Part shown: one piece after another, positions 2,605-17,731 of the stretch
Position numbering within the stretch: the first letter of the stretch is position 1
Layout of the letters: every line of letters begins with the position of its first letter
Assembly: GCA_964447105.1 (NCBI GenBank)
Contig: CAYURH010000001.1
Location: 3,139-67,138 of the forward strand
Direction of reading: 5' to 3'
DNA: 64,000 bases
Source of the DNA: an uncultured Candidatus Saccharibacteria bacterium
GTDB lineage: Bacteria; Patescibacteriota; Saccharimonadia; Saccharimonadales; EFPC-124
Notes under the pieces: model-generated
The model's input: only the letters and a program-made list of their open reading frames with translations
Databases searched by the model: none
What the model was told of the DNA's origin: nothing
Made by a program: the position numbers and the translations under genes

Positions 2605-2833
2605 AGTTTATCCTTGTTGATTATTGTAACAGAAGTAACTTAAAACGCCGGCTAGCCCGGCGTATTTTGATACAAACAAAACCAACCGAGCTAAACCGGC
2701 AGGATATGGCTGAACATGGAAACAGTGGTAGTCATCGTCAATACCATACTATATGTGCCCAGATTAAACAATATTTGCCGCGCCTCTCTCCGCCAGTAGA
2801 AAGAGGCGCGGGTATAGTTAGAACGTTACGCGC

Positions 2834-3106: not shown

Positions 3107-3182
3107 AACAAACTTAACCTGTAGCGAGATTTGCAGGCTACCAAAGATCCGATCATAATTGCTGTAACTTTTATGCCACCCA

Positions 3183-3722
3183 ATGAGTAAGTATACCGTG
3201 CAAGACCTCGATGAACCTGCGCTGATTGCGCACAGCCTAAGCGGCAGCTCCGAAGCCTATGGTGTATTGGTGGACCGCTATAAAAACGCTATTTATCATC
3301 ATAGTTTTGCAATCGTTCGCAACGAAGATGTGGCCGAGGATGTGGCTCAAGACACCTTTATCACGGCGTACTACAAACTACATTTGTACAACCCGCGATA
3401 CAAACTGAGTACGTGGCTGTTCAAAATCGCCACCAACAAAGCACTCACTTGGCTCAAACGTGCTGGTCGCGAAATAGCTACCGACGACGAGCTGATCGCC
3501 ACAATCGCATCACACCATCCTGGCCCGGATACACTGGCTGAATTTAGCGAGCTCCATGCCGCCGTGGACAATCTGCGCCCCAACCACAGAGCTGTCATAA
3601 GCCTGTACTACTGGCAGGGTTTGAGTTATCAAGAAATCGCCACCGCGCTAACTGTGCCTATTGGGTCAGTACGTGCTTGGATGAATCGTGCAAAACATCA
3701 ACTACGAAAGGAGCTGTCGTGA
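3183..3722 (+). CDS. ECF-type RNA polymerase sigma factor (sigma-70 family)
   Basis: 179 aa with a sigma-70 region 2 (DVAQDTFITAYYKL) and region 4 (SLYYWQGLSYQEIATALTVPIGSVRAWMNRA). Confidence 0.9.
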   Translation: MSKYTVQDLDEPALIAHSLSGSSEAYGVLVDRYKNAIYHHSFAIVRNEDVAEDVAQDTFITAYYKLHLYNPRYKLSTWLFKIATNKALTWLKRAGREIATDDELIATIASHHPGPDTLAEFSELHAAVDNLRPNHRAVISLYYWQGLSYQEIATALTVPIGSVRAWMNRAKHQLRKELS

Positions 3723-4654
3723 AGACAATTGACGAGCTACTCGCCACCAGCGCCAGCGCTAAGCCACGGCGCGCACTGCGAGCGGATTTTACCAACCAAA
3801 TTACACACCACATAGCTTCGCATCCGCGCAAAACGGGTGTACTAGTCATATGGGAAAGGTCTATCATGAAATTTTTCACCAAACCTGCACTAGCCATTGC
3901 GACAGTAGGCGCCACGCTTGCTATTGGTGGCACGGCTTACGCCGCCATCGATGGCTGGAACATCAGCGCGCTTTTTGGTGGTCAACAAAACCTACCAGGC
4001 GGCGATCGCATCGTACGGGTAGATACCGATAACTGTACATATATCAGCGCACTGAACTTCCTCACCCACAACACCGAACCCAACACGCTGTATTACAAAG
4101 TGAAAGCGAACTCCAAACTCACCAACGAGCAAGTGGTGCAGATGGCGCGCGGTAACTGCTTTACACAACAGCAAGCTGAATTTGATCAAGCCGTTTTCAA
4201 TAGTGTGCTCAATACACCACAAAACAAGGGCAAAATAGTCGGCGGCTATATCGATAGCGTCATTACGGCAATTAGCCCAACATCAATAAGCATTGAGTCC
4301 GATATACCCATGGGGCCTGAAATAAAGAAGGTCAAACAAACATTCAACCACATCGACCCAAACGTACTCGTATACTCTAGCCCACACAAAATCGCCTACA
4401 GTAGTCTCAAAATTGGTGATCACGTGAGTGTCAGCTACCGCGCGAGCGGCGACGCGTTGTTGCATTCGGAAACAATTGCACCTGATCAAATTAATGCCGG
4501 CGAGCAGGTACTGGTGACGATCAACAAGAACACGCCCGATATGGCTGCGGCCGTGAGTTACCAAAAATATAACCAAACAGAATTTGAACAAGTTGTGCCG
4601 TGCACCGTCCAGTCCAGCGGCTACTGTACGCTCGACGAACTCCCCAAACAGTAA
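3719..4654 (+). CDS. putative anti-sigma factor, single-pass membrane protein
   Basis: GTG start overlaps the sigma factor stop (GTGA) and is preceded by an AAAGGAG RBS. It has a short cytoplasmic N-terminus, a TM helix (FFTKPALAIATVGATLAIGGTAYAA) and an extracytoplasmic domain of about 250 aa. Confidence 0.55.
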   Translation: MKTIDELLATSASAKPRRALRADFTNQITHHIASHPRKTGVLVIWERSIMKFFTKPALAIATVGATLAIGGTAYAAIDGWNISALFGGQQNLPGGDRIVRVDTDNCTYISALNFLTHNTEPNTLYYKVKANSKLTNEQVVQMARGNCFTQQQAEFDQAVFNSVLNTPQNKGKIVGGYIDSVITAISPTSISIESDIPMGPEIKKVKQTFNHIDPNVLVYSSPHKIAYSSLKIGDHVSVSYRASGDALLHSETIAPDQINAGEQVLVTINKNTPDMAAAVSYQKYNQTEFEQVVPCTVQSSGYCTLDELPKQ

Positions 4655-4666
4655 ACGCTTTCCAAT

Positions 4667-4700
4667 AAAATACGGGCTCGCCATGGAGCCCGTATTTTAA
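4667..4700. terminator. bidirectional rho-independent terminator
   Basis: AAAATACGGGCTC-gccatg-GAGCCCGTATTTT, a perfect stem between two convergent genes. Confidence 0.6.
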
Positions 4701-4717
4701 TTTATATTTTGGCCGAA

Positions 4718-5149
4718 TTATTTCAGCCAACCAATGACCAACCCCATTGCCAGCATACCTACCAACTGAGCACCGGTATTTATGCCAAACAATTTGATTT
4801 TTTTAAGCATGTGACCGTAGTTACCAAAAACAATATGGCCCGCTTGCACCGGCACCACAAAGCCAGCATACATCCCCAGGGCAACTACCCATCCACTGGC
4901 CGCTGCGCTTGTGCCGTAAAAATGCTGAGCCATAGCGACAACATAATACAGCGCTAAAGCCGTTACCAAAGTTAATACGAATCCAGAGCCAAACATTATG
5001 CCTTGATGTTTTTTGGCCTGTTCTTGTTCTGCGGCTGTCAGCTCGCGAAGTTTAATTAAGATTTTGCCAAACAAGGCATACCACACACCACCGGCTACTA
5101 AGCTAGCGACAGTTGCGGCCAGCACTACTCCATAATTTATATCAATCAT
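4718..5149 (-). CDS. DUF1761-like small membrane protein
   Basis: 143 aa with multiple TM helices, similar in size and pattern to the DUF1761 family. Confidence 0.5.
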   Translation of the reverse strand: MIDINYGVVLAATVASLVAGGVWYALFGKILIKLRELTAAEQEQAKKHQGIMFGSGFVLTLVTALALYYVVAMAQHFYGTSAAASGWVVALGMYAGFVVPVQAGHIVFGNYGHMLKKIKLFGINTGAQLVGMLAMGLVIGWLK

Positions 5150-5574
5150 TTACTATCCTTATTCATATTAGAGTTATTCATTGGGCCTGCAGCGCCAAGT
5201 TGCTGCATAAGGCCCAGCCTATCTGTTTGCACCCACGACTGCACTACCTTGCCATCGCGCAGCTCATAGATGGCTATACCAGAATCATGAACTGTCTTGC
5301 CCGTAGGCGGCATGTCGCCGAGCGGCCCAGAATGTGTGCCCGTCCATGTCCAGCGTAGAGCTACTTTGTCGCCTTCAGCTATAGCGTCTTCGATTTTCCA
5401 CTGAATATTTGGAAAGGCAGTGCGAACACGCTGAATTGTTTGTATAAACCCATCAGGGCCGCGAGTATCATAAATACCCTGATACTCAGGGGCAATGATA
5501 TCGCGTAGTCCGCCTACATTACCTTTGTTTAGATAGTCTTCATAGATACTACGAACTATTTGCCTGTTATCCAT
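5146..5574 (-). CDS. SnoaL-like ester cyclase / polyketide-cyclase-fold protein
   Basis: 142 aa. The N-terminus (IVRSIYEDYLNKGNVGGLRDIIAPEYQ) and overall pattern are typical of the predicted ester cyclase family. Confidence 0.7.
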   Translation of the reverse strand: MDNRQIVRSIYEDYLNKGNVGGLRDIIAPEYQGIYDTRGPDGFIQTIQRVRTAFPNIQWKIEDAIAEGDKVALRWTWTGTHSGPLGDMPPTGKTVHDSGIAIYELRDGKVVQSWVQTDRLGLMQQLGAAGPMNNSNMNKDSK

Positions 5575-5582
5575 GATGTCTC

Positions 5583-6047
5583 CTATTTATTATTTTGCTG
5601 CAATAATTTTTCCAGACTATCGGCAAGCGACTGGGCTGACCCATCTGCAATAAGCTCTCGGAAAAATGCTTGGTGCGCCACAGCAATGGCTTCGAGCGCA
5701 GCTTTAGCCACTGCATCACCGCGTGATGTCAGTGCCAGTTGGTTGGCGCGTTTGTCGGTGGCGTTTGTGTCGCGCACGATGTAGCCTTGGCGCTCAAGCA
5801 CACGCAGGCTTTGCGATGCCGTCATAGCATCTACGCCCGATAGCTTGGCAATGTCCACCTGGGTGATCGACCGCTCTTCCAGCGACAAGTGCAAGATGTT
5901 GCAGAGGATAATTGCGTTTGTACTGGATAGGCCAAACGACTTAACCGCGGCGTTGAGCGCCTGCTGCCACAATTTAGATGCTTGCCACAAAAGCACGCCG
6001 GGAAGGCGCTGCGCCTTGTCTATTGTGAACGTATCATGCGATTGCAT
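5583..6047 (-). CDS. MarR family transcriptional regulator
   Basis: The internal ATG at 6045-6047 gives a 154-aa protein with a winged HTH (ITQVDIAKLSGVDAMTASQSLRVLERQGYIVRDTNATDKR). The track ORF 5583..6281 is over-extended into the P450 3' end. Confidence 0.8.
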   Translation of the reverse strand: MQSHDTFTIDKAQRLPGVLLWQASKLWQQALNAAVKSFGLSSTNAIILCNILHLSLEERSITQVDIAKLSGVDAMTASQSLRVLERQGYIVRDTNATDKRANQLALTSRGDAVAKAALEAIAVAHQAFFRELIADGSAQSLADSLEKLLQQNNK

Positions 6048-6054
6048 AGTAGTA

Positions 6055-6083
6055 AGTATACTTATAATATTTATCCTTGTCAA
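6055..6083 (-). promoter_or_regulatory. sigma-70 promoter of the MarR gene, near-leaderless
   Basis: On the minus strand: TTGACA-17 nt-TATACT, then 7 nt to the ATG. Confidence 0.45.
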
Positions 6084-6133
6084 GAATTTTGTTTCCAGTG
6101 CCCACCCAGAGATGGGCACTGGAGGTGCAGAGC

Positions 6134-7297
6134 CTATCGAGGGCTCAGCACCAACCGATCCATGCGCTGCAGTAGCCTGCCGGCCGGTTTGACTTCGACG
6201 ATCTGCCAGTGTGGCACGTGCGTAAATAATGCGGCAAGTGTTTTGCGCGACACTGTGGCGCTGAGACCAGAGCCGGGACATTCATAGTCCCCAATGCCGA
6301 AGCCGATGTGCCTGTTGAGTTTTGTGCGGAGCGGGTTATAGACATCCGGGTGTTCGAACAGCGCATCGCGATTGGCGCTCGAAAAGCACACATCCACCAT
6401 TTGCCCCGGCCATAGCGAAGTCTTGTCCAGCAACGCCGGGCGCCGCACTCGCAGCACTCGACACTTGGCCGGGGTCGCAAAACGAATGGTTTCCTGATAG
6501 GCACGCGTTAGCACCCTCCCACCGCCATTGACCGCGTCGTCGTAAACCTCTTCTAGCACAGTCGATGGCTGGTCGTCCATAGTGTGCAGCAGTGTCCATG
6601 CCGCACAAATGGTGTACGAGGTGGTGATAGTAGCGCTGATCATGATGAAATACCACAGCGCGGCCCTGTCGTGGTCGGTGAACAGTTCGGACCGCAATAT
6701 GTGGTCGATGGGCCCATCCAACCCCATAGCCAACCGAGTCCTCGCGTAGTTGTCGTAGAACCGCCACGCATCTTGCTGCCGCGGCAACCCAAACGGCGAC
6801 GAAGCTGCAGACAGTTGATCCATCCAGCCAAAGAACTGGCGGCGCAGGGTGTCGGATTTGAGCCCATCGACGCCCATCAGGTCACAGATCACTTCGTACG
6901 TAATACGATCTGTTACTCGCGCCAAATCGAATGGCACGCCAGCCCTTGCAGCTCTTTCAATGTAATCGTTGGCCATAGACATATCCAGACTGCCTATAGC
7001 TGTCGGCGATATGATGCCTACCAGCGCGTCACGTAAATTGTCGTGCCATTCGCCTTCGGGCTGCACCACCGACCCGCTGAGAACTGGGCTAAACATACGC
7101 AATAGCCACTTAGGCAACGGCAAGATGCTGTGGGTGAAATGCGGACTGGTGAGCGCCGCAATCACCGCGTTGCGGTCGTACAAGCGCAGCGCCGGTAGAC
7201 CATTTACCACCCAGTGCCTTTGCCGGTTGGGGTCGAGCAGCCCGGCGTAGGACACCATGAGCTTCTCGCGGGTCTCGTTCAACAGTTCACCCCTCAT
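6134..7297 (-). CDS. cytochrome P450
   Basis: Heme-binding loop HIGFGIGDYECPGSGLS (FxxGxxxCxG), an ETIR motif (ETIRFATP), and about 390 aa. Confidence 0.9.
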   Translation of the reverse strand: MRGELLNETREKLMVSYAGLLDPNRQRHWVVNGLPALRLYDRNAVIAALTSPHFTHSILPLPKWLLRMFSPVLSGSVVQPEGEWHDNLRDALVGIISPTAIGSLDMSMANDYIERAARAGVPFDLARVTDRITYEVICDLMGVDGLKSDTLRRQFFGWMDQLSAASSPFGLPRQQDAWRFYDNYARTRLAMGLDGPIDHILRSELFTDHDRAALWYFIMISATITTSYTICAAWTLLHTMDDQPSTVLEEVYDDAVNGGGRVLTRAYQETIRFATPAKCRVLRVRRPALLDKTSLWPGQMVDVCFSSANRDALFEHPDVYNPLRTKLNRHIGFGIGDYECPGSGLSATVSRKTLAALFTHVPHWQIVEVKPAGRLLQRMDRLVLSPR

Positions 7298-7439
7298 ACA
7301 AGTTTCACGCCTAGCGACTACCAAGCGATAGCATTATGGTATAGACTTTTATGCAGTTTATAAAGCGACCGCAAAAACCAATATTTTGCCCACACAGCAC
7401 AAAAACTGCTATGCTATGTCATAGTTAATAAGCATAAAC

Positions 7440-8537
7440 ATGAACGAGCAAGATCAACCACTTCAGGGCGAAGGCATAGCACCAGACGCTCAGCCATCCA
7501 AAACCACAGGCATACATCTGCCCCCAAAAAAGATATTATGGGTCGGTATAGCGGTAGCTGCGATCATAGTCATGGGCGTCGTGGTGTGGATGACGCTTAT
7601 AAATAAGCCGCCCGCTTCTCAGCAAAGCTACAATGGGCCGGTCGATGACATTGCTATTGGCAATGTGGGTGAATATTCTATATTCAACCTGATTGCACTC
7701 AACAAAGGATACTTCAAACAAAACGGCCTCAATGCCAAAATCACCGAATACGCGTCTGGCCCACCAGCCGTCGCCGATCTAGTGGCCAAAAAGAATGATT
7801 TTGCTGTAGCAGCTGATTTCTCGGGTGTAAATAGTATCTTTAGTAACACTGATGTCCGAATTCTGACACAGTTAAGCCAACAATTCTCTTTCTCTATCGT
7901 AGCCAGAAAAGACAAAGGTATCGCTAAGCCGCTGGATCTAAAAGGCAAACGAATTGGTGTTACCAAAAACGGGGCTGGAGAATTTTTCTTGGCACGATAC
8001 CTCAATCTGCAGGGCCTCTCCACCTCCAGCGTTAAAGAGATCGACCTCACCCCGCCCGATATGAACACCCAGATCCGCAACGGCCAACTCGACGCAGTGG
8101 TCATATTTGAGCCACACGTCTACAATCTCAGCAAAGATTTAGCCGACGACGTTGTTGTGTGGTCAGCCCAGGGCGGCGACCCCACCCTCGCACTCGCCTA
8201 CACCACGCAAGACATCATCAAAACCAAACCAGATGTCGTAAGACGATATATCAAATCTCTTGTGCAAGCCCAAGAATACCTAAAACAAAACCAGCAAGAT
8301 TCCAAAAAACTACTGGCCGATATTATGCACTACGACACGGCTTACGTGAACTACATTTGGAACAAGATCGACTTCCAGTTGGCACTCAACCAAAACCTTC
8401 TCTCGGCCATGGAAGACGAAGCGCGATTTGTCGTACAAACCACAGGTAGCAACAAACCTATACCCAACTATCTCGACTACATATACTTTGACGCCCTGAC
8501 TCAAGAAGGTTCGGACCTCGTCCATATAATCCACTAG
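7440..8537 (+). CDS. membrane-anchored ABC-type substrate-binding protein (NMT1/SsuA/TauA-like)
   Basis: N-terminal TM anchor plus a periplasmic-binding-protein-like domain. It ends directly upstream of the histidine kinase. Confidence 0.6.
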   Translation: MNEQDQPLQGEGIAPDAQPSKTTGIHLPPKKILWVGIAVAAIIVMGVVVWMTLINKPPASQQSYNGPVDDIAIGNVGEYSIFNLIALNKGYFKQNGLNAKITEYASGPPAVADLVAKKNDFAVAADFSGVNSIFSNTDVRILTQLSQQFSFSIVARKDKGIAKPLDLKGKRIGVTKNGAGEFFLARYLNLQGLSTSSVKEIDLTPPDMNTQIRNGQLDAVVIFEPHVYNLSKDLADDVVVWSAQGGDPTLALAYTTQDIIKTKPDVVRRYIKSLVQAQEYLKQNQQDSKKLLADIMHYDTAYVNYIWNKIDFQLALNQNLLSAMEDEARFVVQTTGSNKPIPNYLDYIYFDALTQEGSDLVHIIH

Positions 8538-8539
8538 GT

Positions 8540-10234
8540 ATGAACACCAAAAAACTGCTCAGTATTACAGCAACGATCCTGTTAGCAACAACACTGCTGT
8601 GCGCCTATATGATCTGGCGATCACTCGAAAACTACAACATAGCCGTACACAACCAAGAGGTGACTCACCAATTAGTGTCATCCATATTTCAGCGGCGCTT
8701 ACTAGCAGACGACTACCTGATGAACCCCAGCACGCGGGCTAAATCGCAGTGGAATAAAGAGCAAACAGCCATACGCAGCTTGCTCGAAGCCAACGCCGAT
8801 GGATTTACGTCTGCCGAAGAAAAGGCTGACGTCCAAAAAATTACCAACACTCTGGAACAGAGCGACGAAACGTTTGCTCAGGTCATAGCCACATTTGAAA
8901 ACAGCGAAAATATACCGACGAGCATTGTGTCTGCTCAAAAAGCGCGCTATGGAGCTCAGCTGACAGTCGTCGCTCTCAACACCGAATCGGCCGCCAATAA
9001 TCTGCTACACATCAACCAGGCTCAAGCGAGCGATTTGCTGCAACGGATCGCTCTGTTGTTTGGCATTGTGGCCGTTGTGCTGTTTGGCGCATTGATAGTG
9101 AGCTTTTCTCTCATCAGACGTAGTATCGACCGACTGGAGCGCCGAGAAGCGCAAGATGCCGCGCTTCTCGGCGGTATCGGTGACGGTGTATTCGCCGTAG
9201 ATGGGCAGGGCAACATCATTCTCTTTAACCGCGCTGCAGAGATGCTCACGGGGCTCTCCCAAAGCGATGTCATGGGTAAACATTATGCTGATATTTGTAG
9301 ATTTGTAGACGAAAAGAGTGGTGAGCCCAAACTGGAATTTATAGCCAAAGCCCTGAACGGAAAACAACAGTCTATGCCGCCAGGCACCATGCTAAGGCGC
9401 AAAGACAACAGCCTCATCCCAGTCGCAGATAGTGCAGCTCCGGTTATCGATAAAGCCGGCTCTGTAATGGGCGCAGTGGTTGTATTTCGCGACATCACAA
9501 AAGAACGAGAGGTCGAACGCGCCAAAGACGAGTTTATATCACTCGCCTCTCACCAACTCAAAACACCGCCCGCATCACTCAAATGGTCATTGGAAGTTTT
9601 GCTCGATGGTACTACCGGCCCCATAAACGCGCAGCAAAAAGACGTACTGACCACCATGCAAGTCACTACCCAAAACATGATCGAAGTTATCAAATCGCTG
9701 CTCAATGTATCACGTTTGGAACTCGGTACATTTATCGTAGATCCTAAGCCAGTGGATCTCGTAGCGCTTACCAAAGCTATCCTTAAAGAGCAAAGCCAAC
9801 TTATCCTCAACAAAAAACTAAGCGTCCGAGAATCATATCCCGAGAACATGCCAGCCATCCCAGCCGACCAAGGACTCGAAAAAATCATCATAGAAAACCT
9901 ACTCTCCAATGCCGTCAAATACACGCCCGCAGGCGGCTCCGTGCACGTGGCCATCAAACGGATCGGCGACAACGTGCGCATAGAAGTAGCCGACAGCGGC
10001 TATGGCATCCCCAAAGAGCAACAGCCCAATATCTTTAGCAAAATGTTCCGTGCCGACAACGTAAAGCAAATCGACGGCACCGGGTTTGGCCTATACCTGC
10101 TCAAGGTTATAGTAGATGAGGTCGCCAAAGGCAAAATCTGGTTCGAATCAACCGAAGGCCGAGGCACCACGTTTTATGTGGAAATGCCGCTCAGTGGCAT
10201 GGTCGCACGCAAGGGCACGTCGAGTTTATCGTAG
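8540..10234 (+). CDS. sensor histidine kinase (two TM helices, extracytoplasmic loop, PAS, HisKA, HATPase_c)
   Basis: H-box ASHQLKTP, a PAS domain (DGQGNIILFNRAAEMLTG), and N/G boxes (DSGYGIP, GTGFGLY). Confidence 0.9.
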   Translation: MNTKKLLSITATILLATTLLCAYMIWRSLENYNIAVHNQEVTHQLVSSIFQRRLLADDYLMNPSTRAKSQWNKEQTAIRSLLEANADGFTSAEEKADVQKITNTLEQSDETFAQVIATFENSENIPTSIVSAQKARYGAQLTVVALNTESAANNLLHINQAQASDLLQRIALLFGIVAVVLFGALIVSFSLIRRSIDRLERREAQDAALLGGIGDGVFAVDGQGNIILFNRAAEMLTGLSQSDVMGKHYADICRFVDEKSGEPKLEFIAKALNGKQQSMPPGTMLRRKDNSLIPVADSAAPVIDKAGSVMGAVVVFRDITKEREVERAKDEFISLASHQLKTPPASLKWSLEVLLDGTTGPINAQQKDVLTTMQVTTQNMIEVIKSLLNVSRLELGTFIVDPKPVDLVALTKAILKEQSQLILNKKLSVRESYPENMPAIPADQGLEKIIIENLLSNAVKYTPAGGSVHVAIKRIGDNVRIEVADSGYGIPKEQQPNIFSKMFRADNVKQIDGTGFGLYLLKVIVDEVAKGKIWFESTEGRGTTFYVEMPLSGMVARKGTSSLS

Positions 10235-10612
10235 ACGCGCTCGAACTGCTGCCACGGCACTGAGCATATGACCGTGATTTTTACCGGCAGGCAATGTCTG
10301 CTCGGTAAACCATGTTGCCTGAGCGATTTCGGCGGACGGCATTATAGCGCTGGGCGCCACCATTCCAGCATATATGTAACGCGCCGACACACCATCGTCA
10401 TTGGCGAGAGTGGCGACGGTTTGTAGATCTATTTCTGTCGTGGTCAAACCCAGTTCTTCGTGCAGCTCGCGCGCGGCGGCCTGTGCGGGCGATTCGCCTG
10501 GTTCAAACTTGCCGCCAGGCAGTTTCCAGTTGTCTGGATCGTCTGACTCAGTAATCGCCAGGAAGCGTTTTGGATCTGTGCGGTCAAATATGACGATGCG
10601 GACGCTATGCAT
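10226..10612 (-). CDS. NUDIX hydrolase
   Basis: Nudix box GGKFEPGESPAQAAARELHEELG. Confidence 0.8.
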   Translation of the reverse strand: MHSVRIVIFDRTDPKRFLAITESDDPDNWKLPGGKFEPGESPAQAAARELHEELGLTTTEIDLQTVATLANDDGVSARYIYAGMVAPSAIMPSAEIAQATWFTEQTLPAGKNHGHMLSAVAAVRARLR

Positions 10613-10772
10613 TACTTAAGAATAATTGGATTTACCCCAAAGAGCCAGGCCATTCTCCATCCACAACCGCCCTTTCAATAGGCGCGTCACGTGACTTTAG
10701 CGGGCCAATAAAGGCAAGCAAGCTTTATGCTTGTGCTAAAATGGGCTTAATAAATAATTAACAAGGAAGTAT

Positions 10773-11402
10773 ATGGTCACGCAAAAAAGGCAAGACGGAT
10801 TTGGCGTAGTGGAGATAGTGCTCGTAATACTATTACTCGGGTTGGCCGGTGTTATTGGTTGGCTGGTGTGGAGCAAAAACAGTACCACGCAATCAGCGAC
10901 AAGTCAGACAAAAAGTATTGAAATACCAGAGATCGGGGTAAAAATCGCTGACCCCGAAAACCGTGGCCTTGCAGTTTTTTACGATGACAGCGCAAAACAA
11001 CCATGTCTTACGAACAAAAATTACTACGCCAACAACGGGTGCGACATGTATCTCAACAGCACACACTGCACCGACACCAATCTGACGGATGGTTCTGTTT
11101 GCTCGTACTATATTTACGACAATACAACATATAAACCGGGTTCAAACACCAGCGAAAACGCTGCCACATATGCAAAATATTTCCAGTGCGATTCTGACCT
11201 CACTATATACGAAGGTAACCCGACAAATAACTACGACTCAGGTAGTGGCATGACAGGGTCGGTAAAAGTGGGTAATAAGGTGATAGCCCTGTGGGCGCAC
11301 GGTAACGTTAAAGGAAGTTGTGATGACACGACATCAAGCGCGACCGATGCCTACATGAAAGACCTTCTGAAATACGTCAAAGCAAACGTTTCGGCTCTTT
11401 AA
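10773..11402 (+). CDS. prepilin-type N-terminal domain protein (type IV pilin-like), Cys-rich
   Basis: N-terminus QDG|FGVVEIVLVILLLGL has the class III signal pattern with Glu at +5. The mature part is rich in Cys, Asn, Thr and Tyr. Upstream are an AAGGAAG RBS and an extended -10 (TGCTAAAAT). Confidence 0.6.
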   Translation: MVTQKRQDGFGVVEIVLVILLLGLAGVIGWLVWSKNSTTQSATSQTKSIEIPEIGVKIADPENRGLAVFYDDSAKQPCLTNKNYYANNGCDMYLNSTHCTDTNLTDGSVCSYYIYDNTTYKPGSNTSENAATYAKYFQCDSDLTIYEGNPTNNYDSGSGMTGSVKVGNKVIALWAHGNVKGSCDDTTSSATDAYMKDLLKYVKANVSAL

Positions 11403-11421
11403 ACACGTTATATCTAAAAAT

Positions 11422-11446
11422 GACCAGATATTGTCTGGTCTTTTTT
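11422..11446 (+). terminator. rho-independent terminator
   Basis: GACCAGA-tattg-TCTGGTC followed by TTTTTT. Confidence 0.6.
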
Positions 11447-11526
11447 AGTGCGCGAGATCGCCGTTAGATGGAACCCTGTTTATAGCAGCACCTTGCTGGC
11501 ATATCAAAAAATGAAAAATCTTAGCT
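11447..11526. repeat. conserved ~85-bp repeat, copy A (shares the GTGCGCGAG core with the tRNA-Leu 3' end)
   Basis: AGTGCGCGAGATCGCCGTTAGATGGAACCC...GCAGCA.cttGCTGGC..ATCAAAAAATGAAAAATCTTAGCTTT aligns with copies B and C. Confidence 0.5.
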
Positions 11527-11600
11527 TTATTATTGCAACGGCTATATAGGTTATTATTATGGCATGACCGTACAAGGACTCGTAAAACAACGTTTGCAAT

Positions 11601-12257
11601 ATGTCGAATAAAAAAATCGACGACTATAAAGCCTACCTGTTCGACTGGGACGGTACCTTGGCAAAAACGCTTGATTTGCATATGTCTGTTCGTCGCAAAA
11701 TCCTGGAGAAATATGACCTACGTCTTTCTGATGAAGAAATCGCGTCGTCACTGGGTAAACTTGACCGGGCACTGGAGGAATGGGGTCTGGACGTCAAGGT
11801 TGTGGGTGCAGAAATGGACGAGCTTGTAATGAAACAGCTACCCGACATAGATTTATATCCTGGGGTTGTGAGTATGCTCAAATGCCTAAAGAGCGCCGGA
11901 AAAAATACTGCGCTGATTACCGCATCACCCCATTCGTTCATTACAGACGTGCTAGAGCGACATAGTCTACGGGCGTATTTTGATGTGATTATAGCTATGG
12001 ATGACGTTGAACATCTGAAGCCACATCCGGAGCCACTACAGAAAGCGATGCAAGCTCTAGGTGCTTCCCAGAATGATTCGCTCATGCTTGGCGACTCCGA
12101 CAAAGACCTTTTGGCCGCCAAAAATGCGAATATCGATTGCCTGTTATTTTATCCAGATTCCCATGCGTTGTTTTACGACAAAGCTTCGCTCACCTCACTC
12201 GACCCGACATATACAATCGACACTTGGGAACAGATAATGCCAGGCGGCAGACAATAA
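11601..12257 (+). CDS. HAD-superfamily hydrolase (phosphatase)
   Basis: Motif I is FDWDGTL. The protein has a HAD cap and core, ending in a GDSDKD motif. Confidence 0.8.
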   Translation: MSNKKIDDYKAYLFDWDGTLAKTLDLHMSVRRKILEKYDLRLSDEEIASSLGKLDRALEEWGLDVKVVGAEMDELVMKQLPDIDLYPGVVSMLKCLKSAGKNTALITASPHSFITDVLERHSLRAYFDVIIAMDDVEHLKPHPEPLQKAMQALGASQNDSLMLGDSDKDLLAAKNANIDCLLFYPDSHALFYDKASLTSLDPTYTIDTWEQIMPGGRQ

Positions 12258-12280
12258 TAAGACTTGTAGCAAAATAAAAA

Positions 12281-12310
12281 GGCCTCGCAAATCGAGAGCC
12301 TTTTTATTTA
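12281..12310 (+). terminator. rho-independent terminator candidate
   Basis: GGCCTCG-caaat-CGAGAGCC imperfect stem followed by TTTTTATTT. Confidence 0.45.
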
Positions 12311-12311
12311 G

Positions 12312-12412
12312 AATAAATTGTATCAGACCATGGTGCGCGAGATCGCCGCTACCTGGAACCCAATTTACGCCAGCATTTTATTGATACATCAAAGATTGAA
12401 GAACTTGGGGCT
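12312..12412. repeat. repeat copy B plus a 30-bp direct repeat of the tRNA-Leu 3' end and flank
   Basis: AATAAATTGtATCAGACCATGGTGCGCGAG matches 14191-14220 at 29 of 30 positions. The A/B/C conserved segment follows. Confidence 0.55.
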
Positions 12413-12438
12413 TTAAAAGCAATTTAGCCATCCGTAAA

Positions 12439-13203
12439 CTAGTTTACTTGTATAACTGTGCTATTGTCTTGTGGGACGTCACCGTGCTGCAGGCGGATGA
12501 ACATAGAATTAGCCAAGGGGATTAATCCGATCAATAGCGCTCCGCCGATGCTAGCGATAATGACTGATGCAACAATCAATCTGATTGATCGAACCGTACG
12601 CCACATGAACACCCCGGTAGCTACCAGGTATAACACAAGAACGGTAACTAGAGGGGCGCTCAACCCAGCGTTACGAGCAATAAGAGCAGTGTCCAGACCA
12701 GCGTAACCCAAAAGCAATGCCAGTGCGGCAACCCGTTGCCAAGTTTTTTGCCCACATGCGAGCCAACCACCCGCAAGGCCACTCATAGTCCCTATAACCC
12801 CCCCTACCATTAACCAACGAGCCATAGTAGGTAGCAGGTCAGCACCCGGCCGCAACTCCCCTAGCCCGAGGGTTGTGTAATAAGCGGCTATAGCCAGGGT
12901 CAAAAACAAAACGCCGCCTACTGTACCACCTGCAACCCGCCTCGACGAACCACCCAATACGTAACCCGATATTAGTGCGCCTATCGCCCAAACGCCAGCG
13001 GCGTTCCCGACTAACCCAACTATTAGAAGCCATACCGATACTAGAAAGTCAGTGTGCGATGCCCAATACTCTCTAAAAACACCATCCGCGAAAGCGCTAA
13101 ACACCCCCATCGCTATTGCGCTTGCCGCAATCACTATTGTAGCCTTTGCAATGGGCCGCAAATAAGTAGGCTTATCCTGGGTTGTCATGTGTTTATTATA
13201 CAT
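12439..13203 (-). CDS. polytopic membrane protein, hypothetical
   Basis: 254 aa, Gly/Ala-rich hydrophobic helices, no recognised family. Confidence 0.55.
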   Translation of the reverse strand: MYNKHMTTQDKPTYLRPIAKATIVIAASAIAMGVFSAFADGVFREYWASHTDFLVSVWLLIVGLVGNAAGVWAIGALISGYVLGGSSRRVAGGTVGGVLFLTLAIAAYYTTLGLGELRPGADLLPTMARWLMVGGVIGTMSGLAGGWLACGQKTWQRVAALALLLGYAGLDTALIARNAGLSAPLVTVLVLYLVATGVFMWRTVRSIRLIVASVIIASIGGALLIGLIPLANSMFIRLQHGDVPQDNSTVIQVN

Positions 13204-13235
13204 TCTTCGCCCGATAGGACTTGAACCAAATGCGA
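13204..13235 (-). pseudogene. degenerate tRNA 3'-end fragment (T-arm-like GGTTCAAGTCCT)
   Basis: Minus strand GGTTCAAGTCCTATCGGGCGAAG shares 12 nt with the tRNA-Leu T-arm. No complete cloverleaf. Confidence 0.35.
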
Positions 13236-13311
13236 GAGGTTAGAAGCCAACGCCAAACGAAAAGAATAACTCCGCAAAATAAATTATGGAGTCATTCTTA
13301 TTTGATAACTG

Positions 13312-13395
13312 CCATGGTGCGCGAGGTCGCCGTTAGGTGGAGCCCTACATGTACCAGCATTCTGGCAATTTATCAAAAGCTAAAAGATCTTGGCT
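13312..13395. repeat. repeat copy C (CCATGGTGCGCGAG core plus conserved ~70 bp)
   Basis: CCATGGTGCGCGAGGTCGCCGTTAGGTGGAGCCC...CCAGCATTCTGGC...ATCAAAAGCTAAAAGATCTTGGCTTT. Confidence 0.5.
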
Positions 13396-14043
13396 TTACG
13401 CATGATGGCGAGCAGATGAAGCGCGCCACATCCAAAATCCTACAGCCGTAGCCGTATAAAACACCCAGTGAATGATAAAGCTATACACAAACCCGTATTG
13501 TACTTTCAAAATCAAAATTGGAAAGACTACTGCCGATAGCATCGCGAAAGCTGTGAAATACCAAGCCGGCCATTTGCCTTTCTCAAAGAGGGTGAGCGGT
13601 ACATGAAAAGCGCTAAATATAATCGCGAAGGCCAGTATGACCTGTGGCAATCGCAATCCGGCATCTTGTAGGAACAACACTAGCAATACAATCAACAATT
13701 GCTGCGACACAATGTCAGCCGTCTTAAAGACTAGCCGACGTGGATCGAGCTGCAGAAACTGTCTCGTAGGATATCGTAAGAAGTACTCTTTTGAGACATT
13801 CAAACGCTTTGGCAAATAGAGGTACAAGGCAATGTGAGCAATTACGACGACAATGAGCACAATGACAGGAACAAAGACAAAACCTTCGAATACTCGAGGA
13901 ACATAACCGTTGAATAGAACGCCGGTGACGATGGCAGTAGCGAGGAAATAAAGTGCGGCTAGGAAGAAATGTTTTGTGTGGTTGAACCCTTTGTGAATCA
14001 GTGCCCGGAATATGCCCGTGATATTGCCCAAATCGATAGCCAA
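13396..14043 (-). CDS. polytopic membrane protein, hypothetical
   Basis: 215 aa with at least six TM helices. Family not recognised. Confidence 0.55.
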   Translation of the reverse strand: MAIDLGNITGIFRALIHKGFNHTKHFFLAALYFLATAIVTGVLFNGYVPRVFEGFVFVPVIVLIVVVIAHIALYLYLPKRLNVSKEYFLRYPTRQFLQLDPRRLVFKTADIVSQQLLIVLLVLFLQDAGLRLPQVILAFAIIFSAFHVPLTLFEKGKWPAWYFTAFAMLSAVVFPILILKVQYGFVYSFIIHWVFYTATAVGFWMWRASSARHHA

Positions 14044-14084
14044 ATTAGAATATTTAGCAGCAAAACTTTCATTAGTTTAATCAT

Positions 14085-14135
14085 ACCTTATCTTGAACCA
14101 GAGAGGACTTGAACCCATGCAACAGATTGGAAATG
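14085..14135 (-). pseudogene. degenerate tRNA-Leu 3'-half fragment
   Basis: Minus strand GGTTCAAGTCCTCTCT is identical to 16 nt of the tRNA-Leu T-arm and acceptor region, but has no acceptor pairing or CCA end. Confidence 0.35.
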
Positions 14136-14139
14136 GTAA

Positions 14140-14178
14140 AAGTATAAAAAGAAAAGTCCCAGTGATAAAAACTGGGAC
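14140..14178 (-). terminator. terminator downstream of tRNA-Leu
   Basis: GTCCCAGT-ttttatc-ACTGGGAC followed by TTTTCTTTTT on the minus strand. Confidence 0.5.
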
Positions 14179-14209
14179 CTTCCTATCTGGAATAAATTGA
14201 ATCAGACCA

Positions 14210-14293
14210 TGGTGCGCGAGAGAGGACTTGAACCTCCACGCCTTGCGGCACTAGCTCCTAAGGCTAGCGTGTCTACCATTCCACCACTCGCGC
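14210..14293 (-). tRNA. tRNA-Leu (anticodon UAG), type II with long variable arm, encoded CCA
   Basis: GCGCGAGTGGTGGAATGGTAGACACGCTAGCCTTAGGAGCTAGTGCCGCAAGGCGTGGAGGTTCAAGTCCTCTCTCGCGCACCA folds with a 7-bp acceptor stem, a 3-bp D stem, anticodon loop CTTAGGA, and T-loop TTCAAGT. Confidence 0.9.
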
Positions 14294-14660
14294 ATGGGTA
14301 ATGACTGCGCATGATTATATCTTTAAAAGAGTTTTTACTCAACTGTGGCAGATTCTGCAAAAATCACAGCGCCACGACCAAGTGTCGCGCTGCCGGTACG
14401 TGCAGCCACTTCGTCTGCTCTGGCGTCAAGCTCAGCGGCAGTGTCGTGCCAGCTCTGCGTAGCGGTCAGCCAGCGTTCGCATATTAGCTGCTGTTGCAGC
14501 GGCATCGTTTCGTTCGCCAAGTGCTTTGGCATGCGCTGGCGATACGGGAGTTACATCTGCCTTCTTAAAAAAATAACCCTCATCGGGGTCTGTTGCGTTC
14601 GGGCGTTCTGCTGTTGTCGTCATAATCTTTCAACATTGTAGTGCCAATGAGTTCAATACG

Positions 14661-14698
14661 CAAGCAACTTAAAAGACCGCCTTCTTCTAGGCGGCCTT
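14661..14698 (-). terminator. terminator overlapping the rsmD stop codon
   Basis: GGCCGCCT-agaaga-AGGCGGTC followed by TTTTAAGTT on the minus strand. Confidence 0.45.
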
Positions 14699-15235
14699 TA
14701 CGCGGTAGAATGCCAGCGCCGCATCTCCGTAAGTTTTGTTATCCACCACAACAACTCCACTAGCCTTGACGGTCGGCGCCGAGCCTCTACCTGTATATGA
14801 TACTAGCATAAGCCCGTTGGGTTTTAAAAGGCCCGAAAGTAACGCGATTGTGGATAACTGCGGATCGTGATATGGCGGGTCAGCGACGATCAGATCAAAA
14901 CGTGCGTCGGGGTTATTATCGGCCCATTGTTTGGCGGTAGCTTTGATGAGTTTTGCACGAAATTGCAGTCCGAGTGATTCGATGTTTTTCGCAATCACGC
15001 TTTGGGCTTTTTTGTCACGCTCAATAAGCACTGCATGGGCCGCTCCCCGACTGAGCGCTTCAAAACTGATGGCACCCGTGCCCGCAAACGCATCGAGCAC
15101 GGTCTGCCCAGAGATATCTCCCAAACTATTAAACATAGCGCCGCGCATGCGTTCGCTCATGGGATGTGTGGTATGTGTATCGGGCGAATCAAAAAACCGG
15201 CCACCCAGTTCGCCGGCGATGACGCGAAGTCTCAT
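14687..15235 (-). CDS. rsmD: 16S rRNA (guanine966-N2)-methyltransferase RsmD
   Basis: VLDAFAGTGAISFEALSRGA and DLIVADPPY motifs. The start is taken at MRLRVIAGELGG. Confidence 0.8.
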   Translation of the reverse strand: MRLRVIAGELGGRFFDSPDTHTTHPMSERMRGAMFNSLGDISGQTVLDAFAGTGAISFEALSRGAAHAVLIERDKKAQSVIAKNIESLGLQFRAKLIKATAKQWADNNPDARFDLIVADPPYHDPQLSTIALLSGLLKPNGLMLVSYTGRGSAPTVKASGVVVVDNKTYGDAALAFYRVKAA

Positions 15236-16050
15236 ACCCCGGCCTTGCGAACACAATCGTACCAAGCAAGCGTAATCACGCGCACAATAGCTGGCGCTAG
15301 TTCCTGCTTGGCTTCACGCGCGAGGCGACCATTCCAACCTTTTTCGGCGAAGCGTTCGTACATTTTTAGATCGTGCAGATGCTGTGCTGTGCGTTTGAAT
15401 ACGGTAATTATGTCTGTTTCTTCCAGTTCATGCACGTCTTCTTCGCTGGGGTAGCCACGCTTCAAGCGCAATGGGGCAATGGCAGCCGCAAAACCCAGTT
15501 CAAACATCAGGTGCGTGGTCATCACGCCTTTGGCGCCCCAGAATTCCCAGTTTTTGGCCAACACTTGCAATCGTGAATCCTCTGCCGAACGGATAACCAG
15601 CTTGTCCTTGTAACTGGTGCGCGTTTCTAGCCCTTCGCCACGCAATTCTTCCAGCTTTTTTTCGAGCGGATAATGGTGCGCTGGCGTTAAACCATCGGTA
15701 ATGGCGTGCGCCATCCACGCCGCTTCAAACGCTGCTTTTTCCATCTCGCCCGCTTTCAGCGCGGCCGTCAGGTTGAGCGTGTGGCGCTGGATCATCTCGA
15801 TCAGCTGTGTGTCTTCTGGGTCTGTCGGGTCATAATAATGCCACGGTTCATCACGTGCCGGTGATTTGCGTTTGATGCCATCTGGGCCGTTCAGCCCCTC
15901 AAAATGCAAAATTTCTTTGATAGTTGGGAATACACTATCTGGCGCCAGTTGGTGCACGGCCCGCCTGGCAACACGATCCAGTTTCTGGTGTGCGCCGATA
16001 ATACGGCCAGATGAATTACGTAGGGTTGTGCCTGAATACATTACACCCAT
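15232..16050 (-). CDS. hypothetical protein, translationally coupled to rsmD (ATGA overlap)
   Basis: About 270 aa, no confident family. The start is taken at MGVMYSG. Confidence 0.45.
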   Translation of the reverse strand: MGVMYSGTTLRNSSGRIIGAHQKLDRVARRAVHQLAPDSVFPTIKEILHFEGLNGPDGIKRKSPARDEPWHYYDPTDPEDTQLIEMIQRHTLNLTAALKAGEMEKAAFEAAWMAHAITDGLTPAHHYPLEKKLEELRGEGLETRTSYKDKLVIRSAEDSRLQVLAKNWEFWGAKGVMTTHLMFELGFAAAIAPLRLKRGYPSEEDVHELEETDIITVFKRTAQHLHDLKMYERFAEKGWNGRLAREAKQELAPAIVRVITLAWYDCVRKAGV

Positions 16051-16102
16051 TGTAGGGCTATTTTTGCTCCGCAATCAAGCCCAGTATGCTACGATTGCAG
16101 TG

Positions 16103-17731
16103 ATGCAAGTGTTGAAGTTCGTTTTTCGCAATCTAGATCACTTTAGAGCTCGGTTTCTTGGCCTGATCTGCCTGGGATTTATACATGGCATAACGTATTT
16201 TTTGATACCTACCGCTCTGGCCGAATTTACCAAGCACCCCATTACAACTCAAAGTGCCACGCAGTTGATCGCAATTGTGGCTGGTCTCTATATTTTTGAT
16301 TTGTGCAATTCGTGGGTGATTCGCAACCATGGTGAAGCCCTGATTTTTCAATTTAGCAACTACATCCGCGAAAAGTTATTCAAGCGTTATGAACACTTAA
16401 CTACAGAGCAGATGCACACCCACCATTCTGGCTACGTCTTGTCGCTTACCAACAAAGTAGCCGATAAGCTAGACAGCATATTGATGGGGCTTATGTGGAA
16501 CATTAGCGCAGGGTTTGCCGTTCTTTTACTATTTTTCTACTTTACCTTTAAAGAATCGCCGCTTTTAGCTATTGGAAACGTGGCTATCCTGACTATCTTT
16601 GTGGTGGTTAGCAGCAGACTGGCTCGAACTATGGTGCCTATGGCAGCCGAACAAAACGTGCGCCGCGCTACTTTGCTATCTAGCTATGCGGATTTTATGG
16701 CCAATATAATGACCATCAAAAAATTAGGCATTCACCCATTTGCTGAACGTAAAGTACGCAAACAAACTGCACGTTTGGACGCACAGATCCGCACCGTCCA
16801 AAGATTCCATGGTAACCGATGGTTTATGCTACATAGTTTGTTTGGACTGGCGTTTGTGGGCACTATTGGCCTGTTGGTATGGAGTATTTCTGCGGGTGGG
16901 GTGAGTCCATCGATACTTATTTTGTTTATTAGCGCGTACGGCACATTACGTGGGCTTGTCGAACGTCTGTCCGAAGATATAAAAGACTACATGGACACGG
17001 GCGCATACCTTCGCCAGCTTGATGATATTTTGCAGCAACCCACTGGCGTTGATCAGAAAAAACTCAAAGCCTGGAAAACTATCGAGCTGCGCGATGTCGC
17101 CTTTACCTACAAAGACGGCAGTCACCGCGTGACAATCCCCAACTTTACATTGCACAGCGGTAACAAAGTCTGCATCACCGGCCCGTCTGGCCAGGGCAAA
17201 AGCACTTTCCTAAACCTGCTCACCAACCAGCTAACCCCACAGGAAGGTGTGCGAACTATCAACGGACACTCCTTTGATGAGATGTCTGAATTGCTGAGTC
17301 AAAACACAGCGGTGATCGCTCAAGACGTGGATTTATTTAATGTATCTGTGCGCGAAAACCTAACGCTCGGCCAGACTATAGTCGACGATACGCTTGTAGT
17401 GTACATAAAAGCTATGGGACTACAAGATTGGTACAAAAGCCTCAAACACGGGCTGGACACCGTGGTGGGCGAAAAAGGCACTACACTTTCGGCCGGCCAA
17501 AAGCAGCGGCTCAATATTTTGCGCGGCCTGCTACTGAATCGCCAGATATACATCCTCGATGAGCCCACGTCACACCTAGATGATGCTACCGAAAAACTGG
17601 TTGTTGATTTCCTGAAGCGTGAGCTCAAAGACAAAACAGTGGTGGTAGTAACACATCGTCCCGCACTGCGTGATATTTGCGACACTGAATACGTGATGAA
17701 TAACCATACGCTCGAGCCCGCAAAGCGCTAA
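16103..17731 (+). CDS. ABC transporter, fused permease and ATP-binding protein (exporter type)
   Basis: Six-TM N-terminal half, Walker A GPSGQGKST, signature LSAGQKQR, Walker B ILDEPTSHLD. The start is set at the internal ATG (MQVLKF) to avoid overlap with the opposite-strand gene. Confidence 0.85.
   Translation: MQVLKFVFRNLDHFRARFLGLICLGFIHGITYFLIPTALAEFTKHPITTQSATQLIAIVAGLYIFDLCNSWVIRNHGEALIFQFSNYIREKLFKRYEHLTTEQMHTHHSGYVLSLTNKVADKLDSILMGLMWNISAGFAVLLLFFYFTFKESPLLAIGNVAILTIFVVVSSRLARTMVPMAAEQNVRRATLLSSYADFMANIMTIKKLGIHPFAERKVRKQTARLDAQIRTVQRFHGNRWFMLHSLFGLAFVGTIGLLVWSISAGGVSPSILILFISAYGTLRGLVERLSEDIKDYMDTGAYLRQLDDILQQPTGVDQKKLKAWKTIELRDVAFTYKDGSHRVTIPNFTLHSGNKVCITGPSGQGKSTFLNLLTNQLTPQEGVRTINGHSFDEMSELLSQNTAVIAQDVDLFNVSVRENLTLGQTIVDDTLVVYIKAMGLQDWYKSLKHGLDTVVGEKGTTLSAGQKQRLNILRGLLLNRQIYILDEPTSHLDDATEKLVVDFLKRELKDKTVVVVTHRPALRDICDTEYVMNNHTLEPAKR

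Follow-up and report, generated by a model that had tools for sequence, protein, structure and literature searches.

Tycheposons, known from Prochlorococcus, are defined by a site-specific integrase of their own together with hallmark replication genes (10.1101/2020.12.28.424599), and the additive flexible islands of Alteromonas are reported to be products of serial tRNA-proximal integration (PMC4898812). Cis-mobilisable elements (CIMEs) are att-flanked units without recombination genes, which can stand in tandem at one att site and are presumed to be mobilised in trans (reviewed in PMC5704250). Here we describe an array of single-gene cassettes located downstream of the 3' end of a tRNA-Leu(TAG) gene of an uncultured Candidatus Saccharibacteria bacterium, in a stretch of 64,000 nucleotides of contig CAYURH010000001.1 (hereafter the window), whose genome is known from one NCBI metagenome-assembled genome (MAG) and one SRA run. 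The array contains three direct repeats, each of which begins with a copy of the tRNA 3' end and continues into a small gene, designated X. It looks like an undescribed gene-capture system, and full-text literature searches returned no description of X cassette arrays in Saccharibacteria or Patescibacteria.

With tycheposons and additive islands the locus shares the apparent entry at the 3' side of a specific tRNA, the partial tRNA copies that separate arrivals, the putative displacement of older material outwards, the small accessory cargo genes and a host with a streamlined genome. Unlike tycheposons, no unit of the 37 related loci compared holds an integrase, the units measure 0.55-2.2 kb with a single cargo gene, and they meet at a fixed junction of ~250 nt with a T-arm mimic, a terminator and a small open reading frame (ORF) starting in the tRNA-end copy. 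As for two hallmarks of tRNA islands, units placed 3' of the tRNA and separated by direct repeats of its end were found at all three junctions of the window and at about 14 independent loci, and an element-encoded integrase was found in no cassette and within 10 kb of no locus. Like CIMEs, these units are bounded by tRNA-end copies and hold one cargo gene plus X, with no recombination or transfer genes. However, CIMEs derive from or coexist with a recognisable integrative and conjugative element (ICE) or integrative and mobilisable element (IME) that supplies the integrase, and no such partner was found here: searches of metagenome loci, viral contigs, and phage and plasmid collections yielded no cognate autonomous element. 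The single-gene cassette arrays, the conserved end module associated with recombination and the single entry point are reminiscent of integrons, and some X arrays resemble cassette clusters without a nearby integrase. In contrast to integrons, there is neither an IntI (window and 37 loci) nor an attC-type imperfect palindrome, the cassettes lie on both strands with their own promoters and terminators, a tRNA 3' end serves as the entry point, and a protein-coding gene forms part of the junction; a GTTRRRY-like heptamer, read directly, occurs in only two of the three copies and without an inverse partner. The system is thus set apart from tycheposons, CIMEs and integrons because it shows no element-borne integrase, no cognate autonomous element, no IntI and no attC.

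The tRNA-Leu(TAG) gene, located at 14210-14293 on the minus strand, is the sole tRNA of the window and the head of the array; ARAGORN and Rfam (59.1 bits) agree that it is intact, as stated in a preliminary description made from the sequence by eye, and Rfam at E up to 10 returned no second tRNA-like match in the window, only chance matches. At lower coordinates, which corresponds to the downstream side of its 3' end, three direct repeat copies of ~90 nt are found on the plus strand (A, 11443-11533; B, 12327-12418; C, 13310-13403), with pairwise identities of 62-71%. An nhmmer profile built from A, B and C recovers each copy with an E of 1e-26 to 2e-27 (overall range 1e-19 to 1e-27), and no further copy in the 64 kb at E better than 1. 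All three segments had been recognised in the preliminary description, although copy B had been given a start at 12342, 9 nt later than the true one at 12333. Each copy opens with the final 11 nt of the tRNA in reverse complement (CTCGCGCACCA, 14210-14220, minus strand, by sequence match), in copy A as the variant CTCGCGCACTA. With up to one mismatch, this 11-mer occurs at four sites in the window, namely the tRNA and the three copies, all on the tRNA strand. Similarity to the tRNA stops after 11-12 nt and does not run along most of the gene, as it would in a tRNA pseudogene or a duplicated tRNA; the following ~70 nt are not tRNA-derived, as had been proposed.

At copy B the resemblance extends further, since the tRNA end plus its trailer (14178-14221) recurs at 12299-12342 over 44 nt with 89% identity. 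The 30-bp repeat of the tRNA end reported before is hence real and longer, but it does not form an attL/attR pair around a single element of 1.9 kb, being one of several like junctions. In addition, the T-arm sequence GGTTCAAGTCCTCTCT is found on the tRNA strand at 14100-14115 (16/16 positions) and at 13212-13227 (14/16). Terminator-like hairpins were detected by scan at 11422-11440, 12283-12297 and 14150-14184, and a further one was read by eye near 13264-13297. The junctions bound three units, holding a HAD phosphatase and two membrane proteins that are unrelated to each other; the cargo genes occur in both orientations, every unit ends in a terminator of its own, and the GC content of the island is 0.42-0.46, compared with a window mean of 0.52. 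The ORFs of the four single-gene units previously proposed are as described, with the HAD assignment confirmed by Pfam, but the fourth, a pilin-like gene, lies outside the outermost junction.

The ~70-nt segment that follows the tRNA-end copy had been suggested to be an arm-type recognition site or a structured element. In fact, it codes for X, a conserved small protein of ~43-47 aa. The repeat corresponds to the 5' part of the X ORF and every copy reads as an ORF on the plus strand, with a start codon NTG composed of the last bases of the copied CCA and the next base (ccATGgtgcgcgag). The peptides read VREIAVRWNPVYSSTLLAYQKMKNLSF... in copy A, MVREIAATWNPIYASILLIHQRLKNLGL followed by a stop in copy B, and MVREVAVRWSPTCTSILAIYQKLKDLGFTHDGEQ... 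in copy C. The three ORFs differ in their preservation. Copy C (13314-13451, plus strand, 45 aa) is nearly intact and is present in a public annotation as protein P0122; its ATG overlaps the CCA of the 11-nt tRNA 3'-end copy (acc3, 13315-13325). Copy B (12330-12416, plus strand), whose ATG likewise overlaps the CCA of its acc3 (12331-12341), ends after 28 codons and is thus shortened relative to the family. The outermost copy, A (11445-11549, plus strand), has no ATG and a decayed C-terminus, and its acc3 (11446-11456, sequence match) misses the CCA.

A peptide profile of the three copies, searched against 1.84 billion representative proteins, retrieved about 40 small ORFs of 29-148 aa with the family motif MVREIDATWNPIYDSILLMYQKLKDLGF-x-Y-x-(D/N)G-x-I-x-I, located either at the N-terminus or after read-through of the upstream trailer. 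A second search against 5.8 billion proteins yielded 56 X clusters, all of 32-79 aa and all labelled 'hypothetical', with Candidatus Saccharimonadales as the only organism named. The only long matches to the profile are repeat proteins, judged spurious. The possibility that X is the N-terminus of a longer gene, for instance an integrase, was ruled out, the members of the family all having 29-148 aa. Over codons 7-28 of 25 intact DNA copies, pN/pS is 0.36 in the X frame versus 0.85 and 1.32 in the other frames, and the per-site differences at the three codon positions are 0.33, 0.22 and 0.46. The same ratio is 0.45 (versus 0.90 and 1.28) for the copies retrieved by DNA search only and 0.35 (versus 0.70 and 0.98) for the three window copies; an initial codon-position count restricted to these three was flat, the signal becoming clear with pN/pS and the wider family. 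Purifying selection acts on X, which is a real protein-coding gene.

RNA and DNA folding revealed no convincing structure in the repeat. The consensus folds of the three copies reach -8.4 and -5.3 kcal/mol on the two strands, with no hairpin spanning the repeat, and a 5-bp hairpin inside X is 80% paired with almost no compensatory change. A structured RNA or attC-like site was accordingly rejected as a candidate, with weak alifold results on both strands and an Rfam search (E up to 10) that returned only the tRNA and chance matches. AlphaFold2, run with 40 family sequences, predicts for X a helix (residues 2-25) followed by a beta-hairpin (28-37), with a mean pLDDT of 82.6. The protein is acidic by direct count; it matched no known family and nothing in the PDB, either by sequence or by fold. 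In some arrays X heads an operon with an HKD/PLD nuclease (see below), and it may act as an accessory factor, as a regulator or by inhibiting that enzyme. The boundary between X and the cargo varies, with X ending after aa 26-28 in some subfamilies and after aa 40-47 in others.

The 37 related loci (a scan of metagenomes of the Joint Genome Institute yielded 28 loci, and further ones came from contig look-ups) show that X arrays are present in many related soil bacteria. The X copies stand in the same orientation at a spacing of 0.55-2.2 kb. A unit usually holds a single cargo gene, which may point either way, and among the encoded products are NUDIX hydrolases, HAD phosphatases, P-loop kinases and membrane proteins. 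Where the contig is long enough, the 3' end of a tRNA-Leu on the opposite strand is reached past the last X copy, a rule that rests on the window and 18 loci (about 14 of them independent), the other X-bearing contigs ending too early. The distance from the last X copy to the tRNA-Leu is 0.55-1.5 kb, except for 4.4 kb in locus L045. The isoacceptors found at array ends are CAG, GAG and TAG; nearly all these genes share the T-arm GGTTCAAGTCCTCTC and a terminal GCACCA, and most share the acceptor strand CTCGCGC, the exceptions being L019 (GAG), L035/L036 and L037/L038. In L018, two divergent tRNA-Leu genes each have an array of their own. The exceptions to the tRNA-Leu rule are three lineages in which the array ends in an operon formed by X, a PLD-family nuclease and a third small protein (X-PLD-p75). 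The repeat is therefore not a genome-wide element similar to repetitive extragenic palindromic (REP) sequences, as it occurs nowhere else in the window and is found in other genomes only downstream of tRNA-Leu or, in those three lineages, upstream of X-PLD-p75. A scan of GTDB genomes with an X DNA pattern returned two chance-level matches only (an Acidilobaceae archaeon and a Gemmobacter MAG), and neither X nor the trailer matched anything in viral contigs (protein and two DNA patterns) or in phage and plasmid collections.

RsmD homologues assign the window to Candidatus Saccharimonadales (TM7, Patescibacteria). Unoccupied sites were also found. In relatives with about 70% RsmD identity, the gene order RadA, PBP, TyrRS, RecG, a 270-aa protein, RsmD and tRNA-Leu(TAG) is conserved, the tRNA has the same 3' end and a terminator directly follows it; these loci are considered unoccupied because they show neither X copies nor tRNA-end repeats. 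The stretch between tRNA-Leu(TAG) and HisRS, which in the window extends from 2.6 to 14.2 kb, differs in every relative. In one of them, L005, the 5' half of the tRNA-Leu(TAG) together with its upstream region is duplicated (16390-16451) 193 nt before the real gene, and about 6 kb encoding PIG-L, a glycosyltransferase and an 838-aa protein lie between RsmD and the tRNA (10755-16400), so the 5' side of this tRNA is also a site of rearrangement.

Alignment of the 170 nt upstream of every X copy defined a conserved junction module, of about 250 nt as a unit, that is 70-90% alike between genomes. Read in the sense of X, it consists of the cargo boundary, a T-arm/acceptor mimic, 4-5 nt, AACAGAT, ~20 nt, a terminator hairpin, TTCTATCTGGAATAAATTGAATCAGACC or variants of it, and NTG-GTGCGCGAG, which opens the X ORF. 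The consensus of the mimic is CAGCGAGAGAGGACTTGAACC in the X sense, the reverse complement of GGTTCAAGTCCTCTCTCGCTG in the tRNA sense, and it lacks ACCA. In most cassettes it lies 64-105 nt ahead of the next X or tRNA. The two degenerate T-arm fragments noted in the preliminary description, here F1 (14100-14115) and F2 (13212-13227), are consequently real but not stray, this fixed distance across the family making them regular parts of cassettes C and B, respectively. The mimic may serve as an additional binding site or may supply the cargo gene with its -35 element. The segment 14100-14221 matches the module of L012, L014, L028, L033 and L035 with 78-82% identity over about 120 nt, and the module of cassette B (13201-13313) matches L019 9904-10081 with 75% over 179 nt and L033 with 79%.

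There is a second type of junction, in which the terminator directly abuts the tRNA-end copy, as it does at unoccupied tRNA-Leu genes. This native type is the outermost junction in the window (copy A) and in L011, L017 and L019, whereas the inner junctions (with exceptions in L018 and L024) and the occupied tRNA bear the trailer of the element. In the window it is represented by a bidirectional terminator abutting copy A (11420-11444, terminator scan), which resembles both the trailers of the unoccupied tRNA-Leu genes in L005, L006 and L009 and the outermost junctions of L011, L017 and L019, and which is read here as the putative original downstream sequence of the tRNA before any insertion. 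No clear pattern was observed by eye, in a small sample, between the trailer subtype and the X subtype on its left or right. In several native-type junctions (L033 ~360-435, L018 ~9930-10000 and L019 ~8925-8977) a fragment like a tRNA 3' end lies on the opposite strand across the shared terminator, so that two tRNA ends face each other.

That the units arrived by insertion and not by duplication is indicated by their relationships. For 20 of the 21 array copies the most similar copy stands in another locus and not in the same array (similarities of 0.75-0.76 versus 0.61-0.70 in the case of the window), and the cargo genes of the cassettes are unrelated to each other. Together with the tRNA-end copies at the junctions and the family-wide geometry, this bears out the earlier view of the locus as a footprint of repeated insertion at the tRNA-Leu 3' end.

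The position of the crossover is delimited by near-identical strains. To the right of X, L041, L042 and L043 show 100% identity over 5-10 kb; on the left each has a context of its own, and the point of divergence is precisely the A of ATGGTGC. L041 contains a 7-bp inverted repeat, formed by the 3' end of a tRNA-Leu(GAG) (...CTCGGGCACCAT, 7983-7994; GCACCAT) and the start of X (ATGGTGC, 10001-10007), and the 2-kb segment between the two is inverted in L042, placing the tRNA trailer against X. The inverted segment (L041 7907-10009, L042 5363-7385) encodes an FAD-linked oxidase and an 87-aa protein; its other end is joined in L042 to a different sequence containing GTGCGCCC, so more than one event must have taken place. 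In L035 and L037 the local tRNA and the copy at X do not agree in the acceptor stem and have no more than (C)GCACCA in common, which places recombination within or beside the final acceptor bases, the discriminator and the CCA. From these comparisons, the crossover appears to lie within or adjacent to GCACCA(T).

No integrase was found in the cassette region or elsewhere in the window by Pfam on 37 window ORFs, motif scan and phmmer, in agreement with the preliminary description. The trans-acting tyrosine or serine integrase that it had suggested looking for in the rest of the genome and in related genomes was not found either in about 430 kb. This search combined Pfam on an ORF subset, precomputed Pfam annotation (nine look-ups, each covering every called gene within 10 kb), a scan for motifs, and phmmer comparison of XerD and gamma-delta resolvase with the 1582 ORFs of 80 aa or more in 429 kb. 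Not even an integrase fragment was detected in about 40 cassettes of the 37 loci. The only transposase- or recombinase-like gene in any of them is an IS200/IS605-type Y1 transposase gene in L045 (8981-9427, minus strand), situated in the tRNA-proximal 4.4 kb of the X array, which looks like an independent insertion sequence (IS).

The explanation that we favour, with slightly better than even confidence, is the serial site-specific insertion of non-autonomous cassettes at the tRNA-Leu 3' terminus. According to this model, a cassette would carry at its left end (plus strand) an 8-12-nt copy of the tRNA 3' end and the start of X, in its middle one cargo gene in either orientation, and at its right end the T-arm/acceptor mimic, the terminator hairpin and a trailer of ~30 nt. 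The tRNA-end copy of the cassette would recombine with the tRNA 3' end, and the right end (trailer, terminator and T-arm mimic) would be placed directly behind the tRNA, which would therefore stay intact and gain the trailer and terminator of the cassette. Older cassettes, with X attached to the displaced original end, would move outward, and the outermost junction would retain the original trailer of the tRNA. The layout of the locus, its geometry across the family, the coding constraint on X, the missing linked recombinase and the breakpoints of the near-identical strains are observations; this directionality, like the current mobility of the cassettes, is a deduction, and the recombinase, not being borne by the cassette, would have to act in trans.

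Several points weigh against this scheme. The mobility of the cassettes is deduced from static structures, and the loci compared showed neither a recombinase nor an excised circle, nor any single cassette that varied in presence or absence. A simple attP x attB exchange leaves the role of the T-arm mimic unexplained, and an alternative register, in which the mobile unit would be [X...cargo] inserted between the acceptor strand and the ACCA of a partial tRNA copy, seems equally consistent with the sequences. Native-type junctions also occur at inner positions (L018_10001 and L024_4756), so the rule that they are outermost is not absolute. With copies A and B of X damaged, the window array may be old and inactive. 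Moreover, the recombinase searches relied on Pfam with a subset of the ORFs and on two reference sequences, and could have missed a divergent enzyme.

As a rather unlikely alternative, the arrays could have been shaped without any dedicated recombinase by RecA-type homologous exchange after DNA uptake, with the junction modules (~250 nt) and the tRNA serving as homology arms. Saccharibacteria are naturally competent, which fits this proposal, as do the lack of a recombinase in the 430 kb searched, the length and conservation of the junction modules across genomes, and the variable X-cargo boundary, which looks like the result of illegitimate events with no fixed site. However, homologous exchange does not explain how a new cargo first arrived between two junction modules, nor the restriction of the arrays to tRNA-Leu ends, nor the sharp breakpoints of L041-L043 at the 7-nt ATGGTGC between left contexts that are not homologous. 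Exchange through the long junction modules probably contributes, and it may operate alongside site-specific insertion without replacing it.

It is improbable that the arrays are dead relics, that is, integrase-bearing tRNA islands of the prophage, ICE or tycheposon type stripped to immobile att scars. Sequential tRNA integration leaving partial tRNA copies is well known (10.1101/2020.12.28.424599) and two of the three window X copies are damaged, but independent decay would not yield the same two-ended, one-cargo architecture with a ~250-nt junction in about 40 cassettes of 37 loci, or erase every integrase fragment from all of them. Furthermore, X is under purifying selection, and the core is rearranged between strains that are 100% identical nearby.

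The X-PLD-p75 operon offers a candidate machinery of another kind. It consists of X, a PLD-family nuclease with a single HKD motif (159-169 aa) and a 69-75-aa protein, and it was located in L041 (10001-10860), L042 (2060-2883), L017 (1730-2579), L024 (5448-6257) and L013 (72-931), the three lineages in which the array ends in it being L017, L024/L025 and L041-L044. The ATG of the nuclease gene overlaps the stop codon of X (ATGTTTAA), and the first codons of the operon coincide with the putative recombination core. The PLD protein resembles the nuclease domains of the defence proteins MkoC, DpdK and DrmC. In three lineages the operon adjoins the coupling-protein end of a type IV secretion cluster, with the X arrays upstream. 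X copies in this position were considered as ICE ends and rejected because the type IV secretion system of Patescibacteria is chromosomal and lacks a relaxase (PMC12102498). Defence genes were also observed beside the operons (L042 82-1818; L041 10921-13239), encoding the GajA protein of Gabija (E 1e-116) and a PDC-S06/Lamassu-like AAA_13 ATPase.

A speculative reading, to which we attach little probability, is that soil Saccharimonadales possess an integron-like capture platform of their own, devoid of a tyrosine or serine recombinase, which stacks single-gene cassettes at the CCA end of tRNA-Leu, with X-PLD-p75 as the candidate machinery. The HKD (PLD) nuclease could then cut and rejoin DNA through a phospho-histidine intermediate, and the X copy of each cassette would be either a cis-acting end or an immunity or accessory factor.

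Single-strand transposition of the HUH/Y1 (IS200/IS605-like) type, in which a Y1 transposase encoded elsewhere would insert the units 3' of CACCA, is very improbable. It would account for insertion exactly after the CCA with no damage to the tRNA, for the conserved hairpin about 30 nt from one end and for the small, weakly conserved hairpin in X, and a Y1 gene is indeed present in the tRNA-proximal part of the L045 array. Nevertheless, that gene is the only one in 37 loci and has the appearance of an independent IS, the hairpin in X is almost devoid of compensatory change, the 11-12-nt identity with the tRNA end exceeds what such elements need, and the L041/L042 inversion is typical of double-strand site-specific recombination. 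Finally, a local tandem duplication downstream of the tRNA or a generic REP-like repeat, with no mobile element, is scarcely credible, for although the copies are direct repeats within one small region, nearly all of them are closer to copies of other genomes than to their neighbours, their cargo genes are unrelated, and the repeat is confined to tRNA-Leu or X-PLD loci.

The individual cassettes of the window can be followed outward from the tRNA, which is preceded by a promoter-like site (TTGAGT-17-TATAAT, 14342-14314, minus strand, promoter scan). The right-end module of cassette C, now the trailer of the tRNA, extends over 14085-14209 (minus strand), as delimited by alignments to other loci, and comprises, on that strand, the conserved ~30-nt trailer (14178-14209, family alignments), the terminator hairpin (14150-14184) and F1, an exact copy of GGTTCAAGTCCTCTCT. 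Its cargo is a 211-aa polytopic membrane protein (13396-14031, minus strand) present in the ORF list and as a gene call in L001. Cassette B has, on the minus strand, a right-end module (13201-13313, family alignments) with F2, the hairpin near 13264-13297 read by eye and a trailer variant ending in TTCTTATTTGATAACTGCC, identified by alignment. It carries a 249-aa polytopic membrane protein (12439-13188, minus strand, ORF list) with only a faint DUF6518 match. A TATAAT (13200-13195) lies just 6 nt before the ATG of this gene (13188), which suggests a leaderless transcript, and the TTCAAG of F2, which lies 19 nt upstream, could provide its -35 element. The module of cassette A (12269-12329, minus strand; scan and alignment) includes a terminator stem (12283-12297) and the conserved trailer, with no T-arm mimic present, and the cargo is the HAD-family phosphatase (11601-12257, plus strand; Pfam HAD_2, E 2e-34), with a promoter-like site at 11533-11560 on the strand shared by the HAD gene and X copy A (promoter scan).

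Beyond the outermost junction lies the gene for the pilin-like, Cys-rich protein (10773-11402, plus strand; GC about 0.45), whose N-terminal G-F-G-V-V-E was read directly. It is regarded as flanking island DNA and not as a demonstrated cassette because it is outside that junction and not bounded by repeats. Neither this protein nor the two membrane proteins have a Pfam match, apart from the faint DUF6518 match of cargo B, and cargo C belongs to no known family. The whole region from HisRS (1282-2604, minus strand) to tRNA-Leu(TAG), that is, 2605-14209, is lineage-specific with respect to the relatives. It also encodes an ECF sigma factor, a DUF1761 protein, a SnoaL-like cyclase, MarR, a P450-like protein, a NUDIX hydrolase and an NMT1-type binding protein with a PAS histidine kinase, an unusual cargo for a reduced Saccharimonadales genome.

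Patescibacteria (the candidate phyla radiation, CPR) have tiny genomes with few recognisable mobile elements, which raises the question of how they acquire accessory genes. The arrays described here suggest that entry recurs at a site defined by its sequence, namely the 3' end of the tRNA-Leu genes, all three of those that read CUN, and the X profile and the junction module provide a handle to search for this cassette format in any genome. Mobilisation of the cassettes in trans, by an enzyme that is unlinked or non-canonical, would amount to a new way of capturing genes in a major uncultured lineage and would provide a natural landing site for genetic tools in Saccharibacteria, and if X-PLD-p75 carries out a non-canonical recombination, the system would be categorically new. 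Even on the most conservative reading, a hypervariable hotspot is explained and a conserved family of small proteins, mostly missed by annotation, is brought to light.

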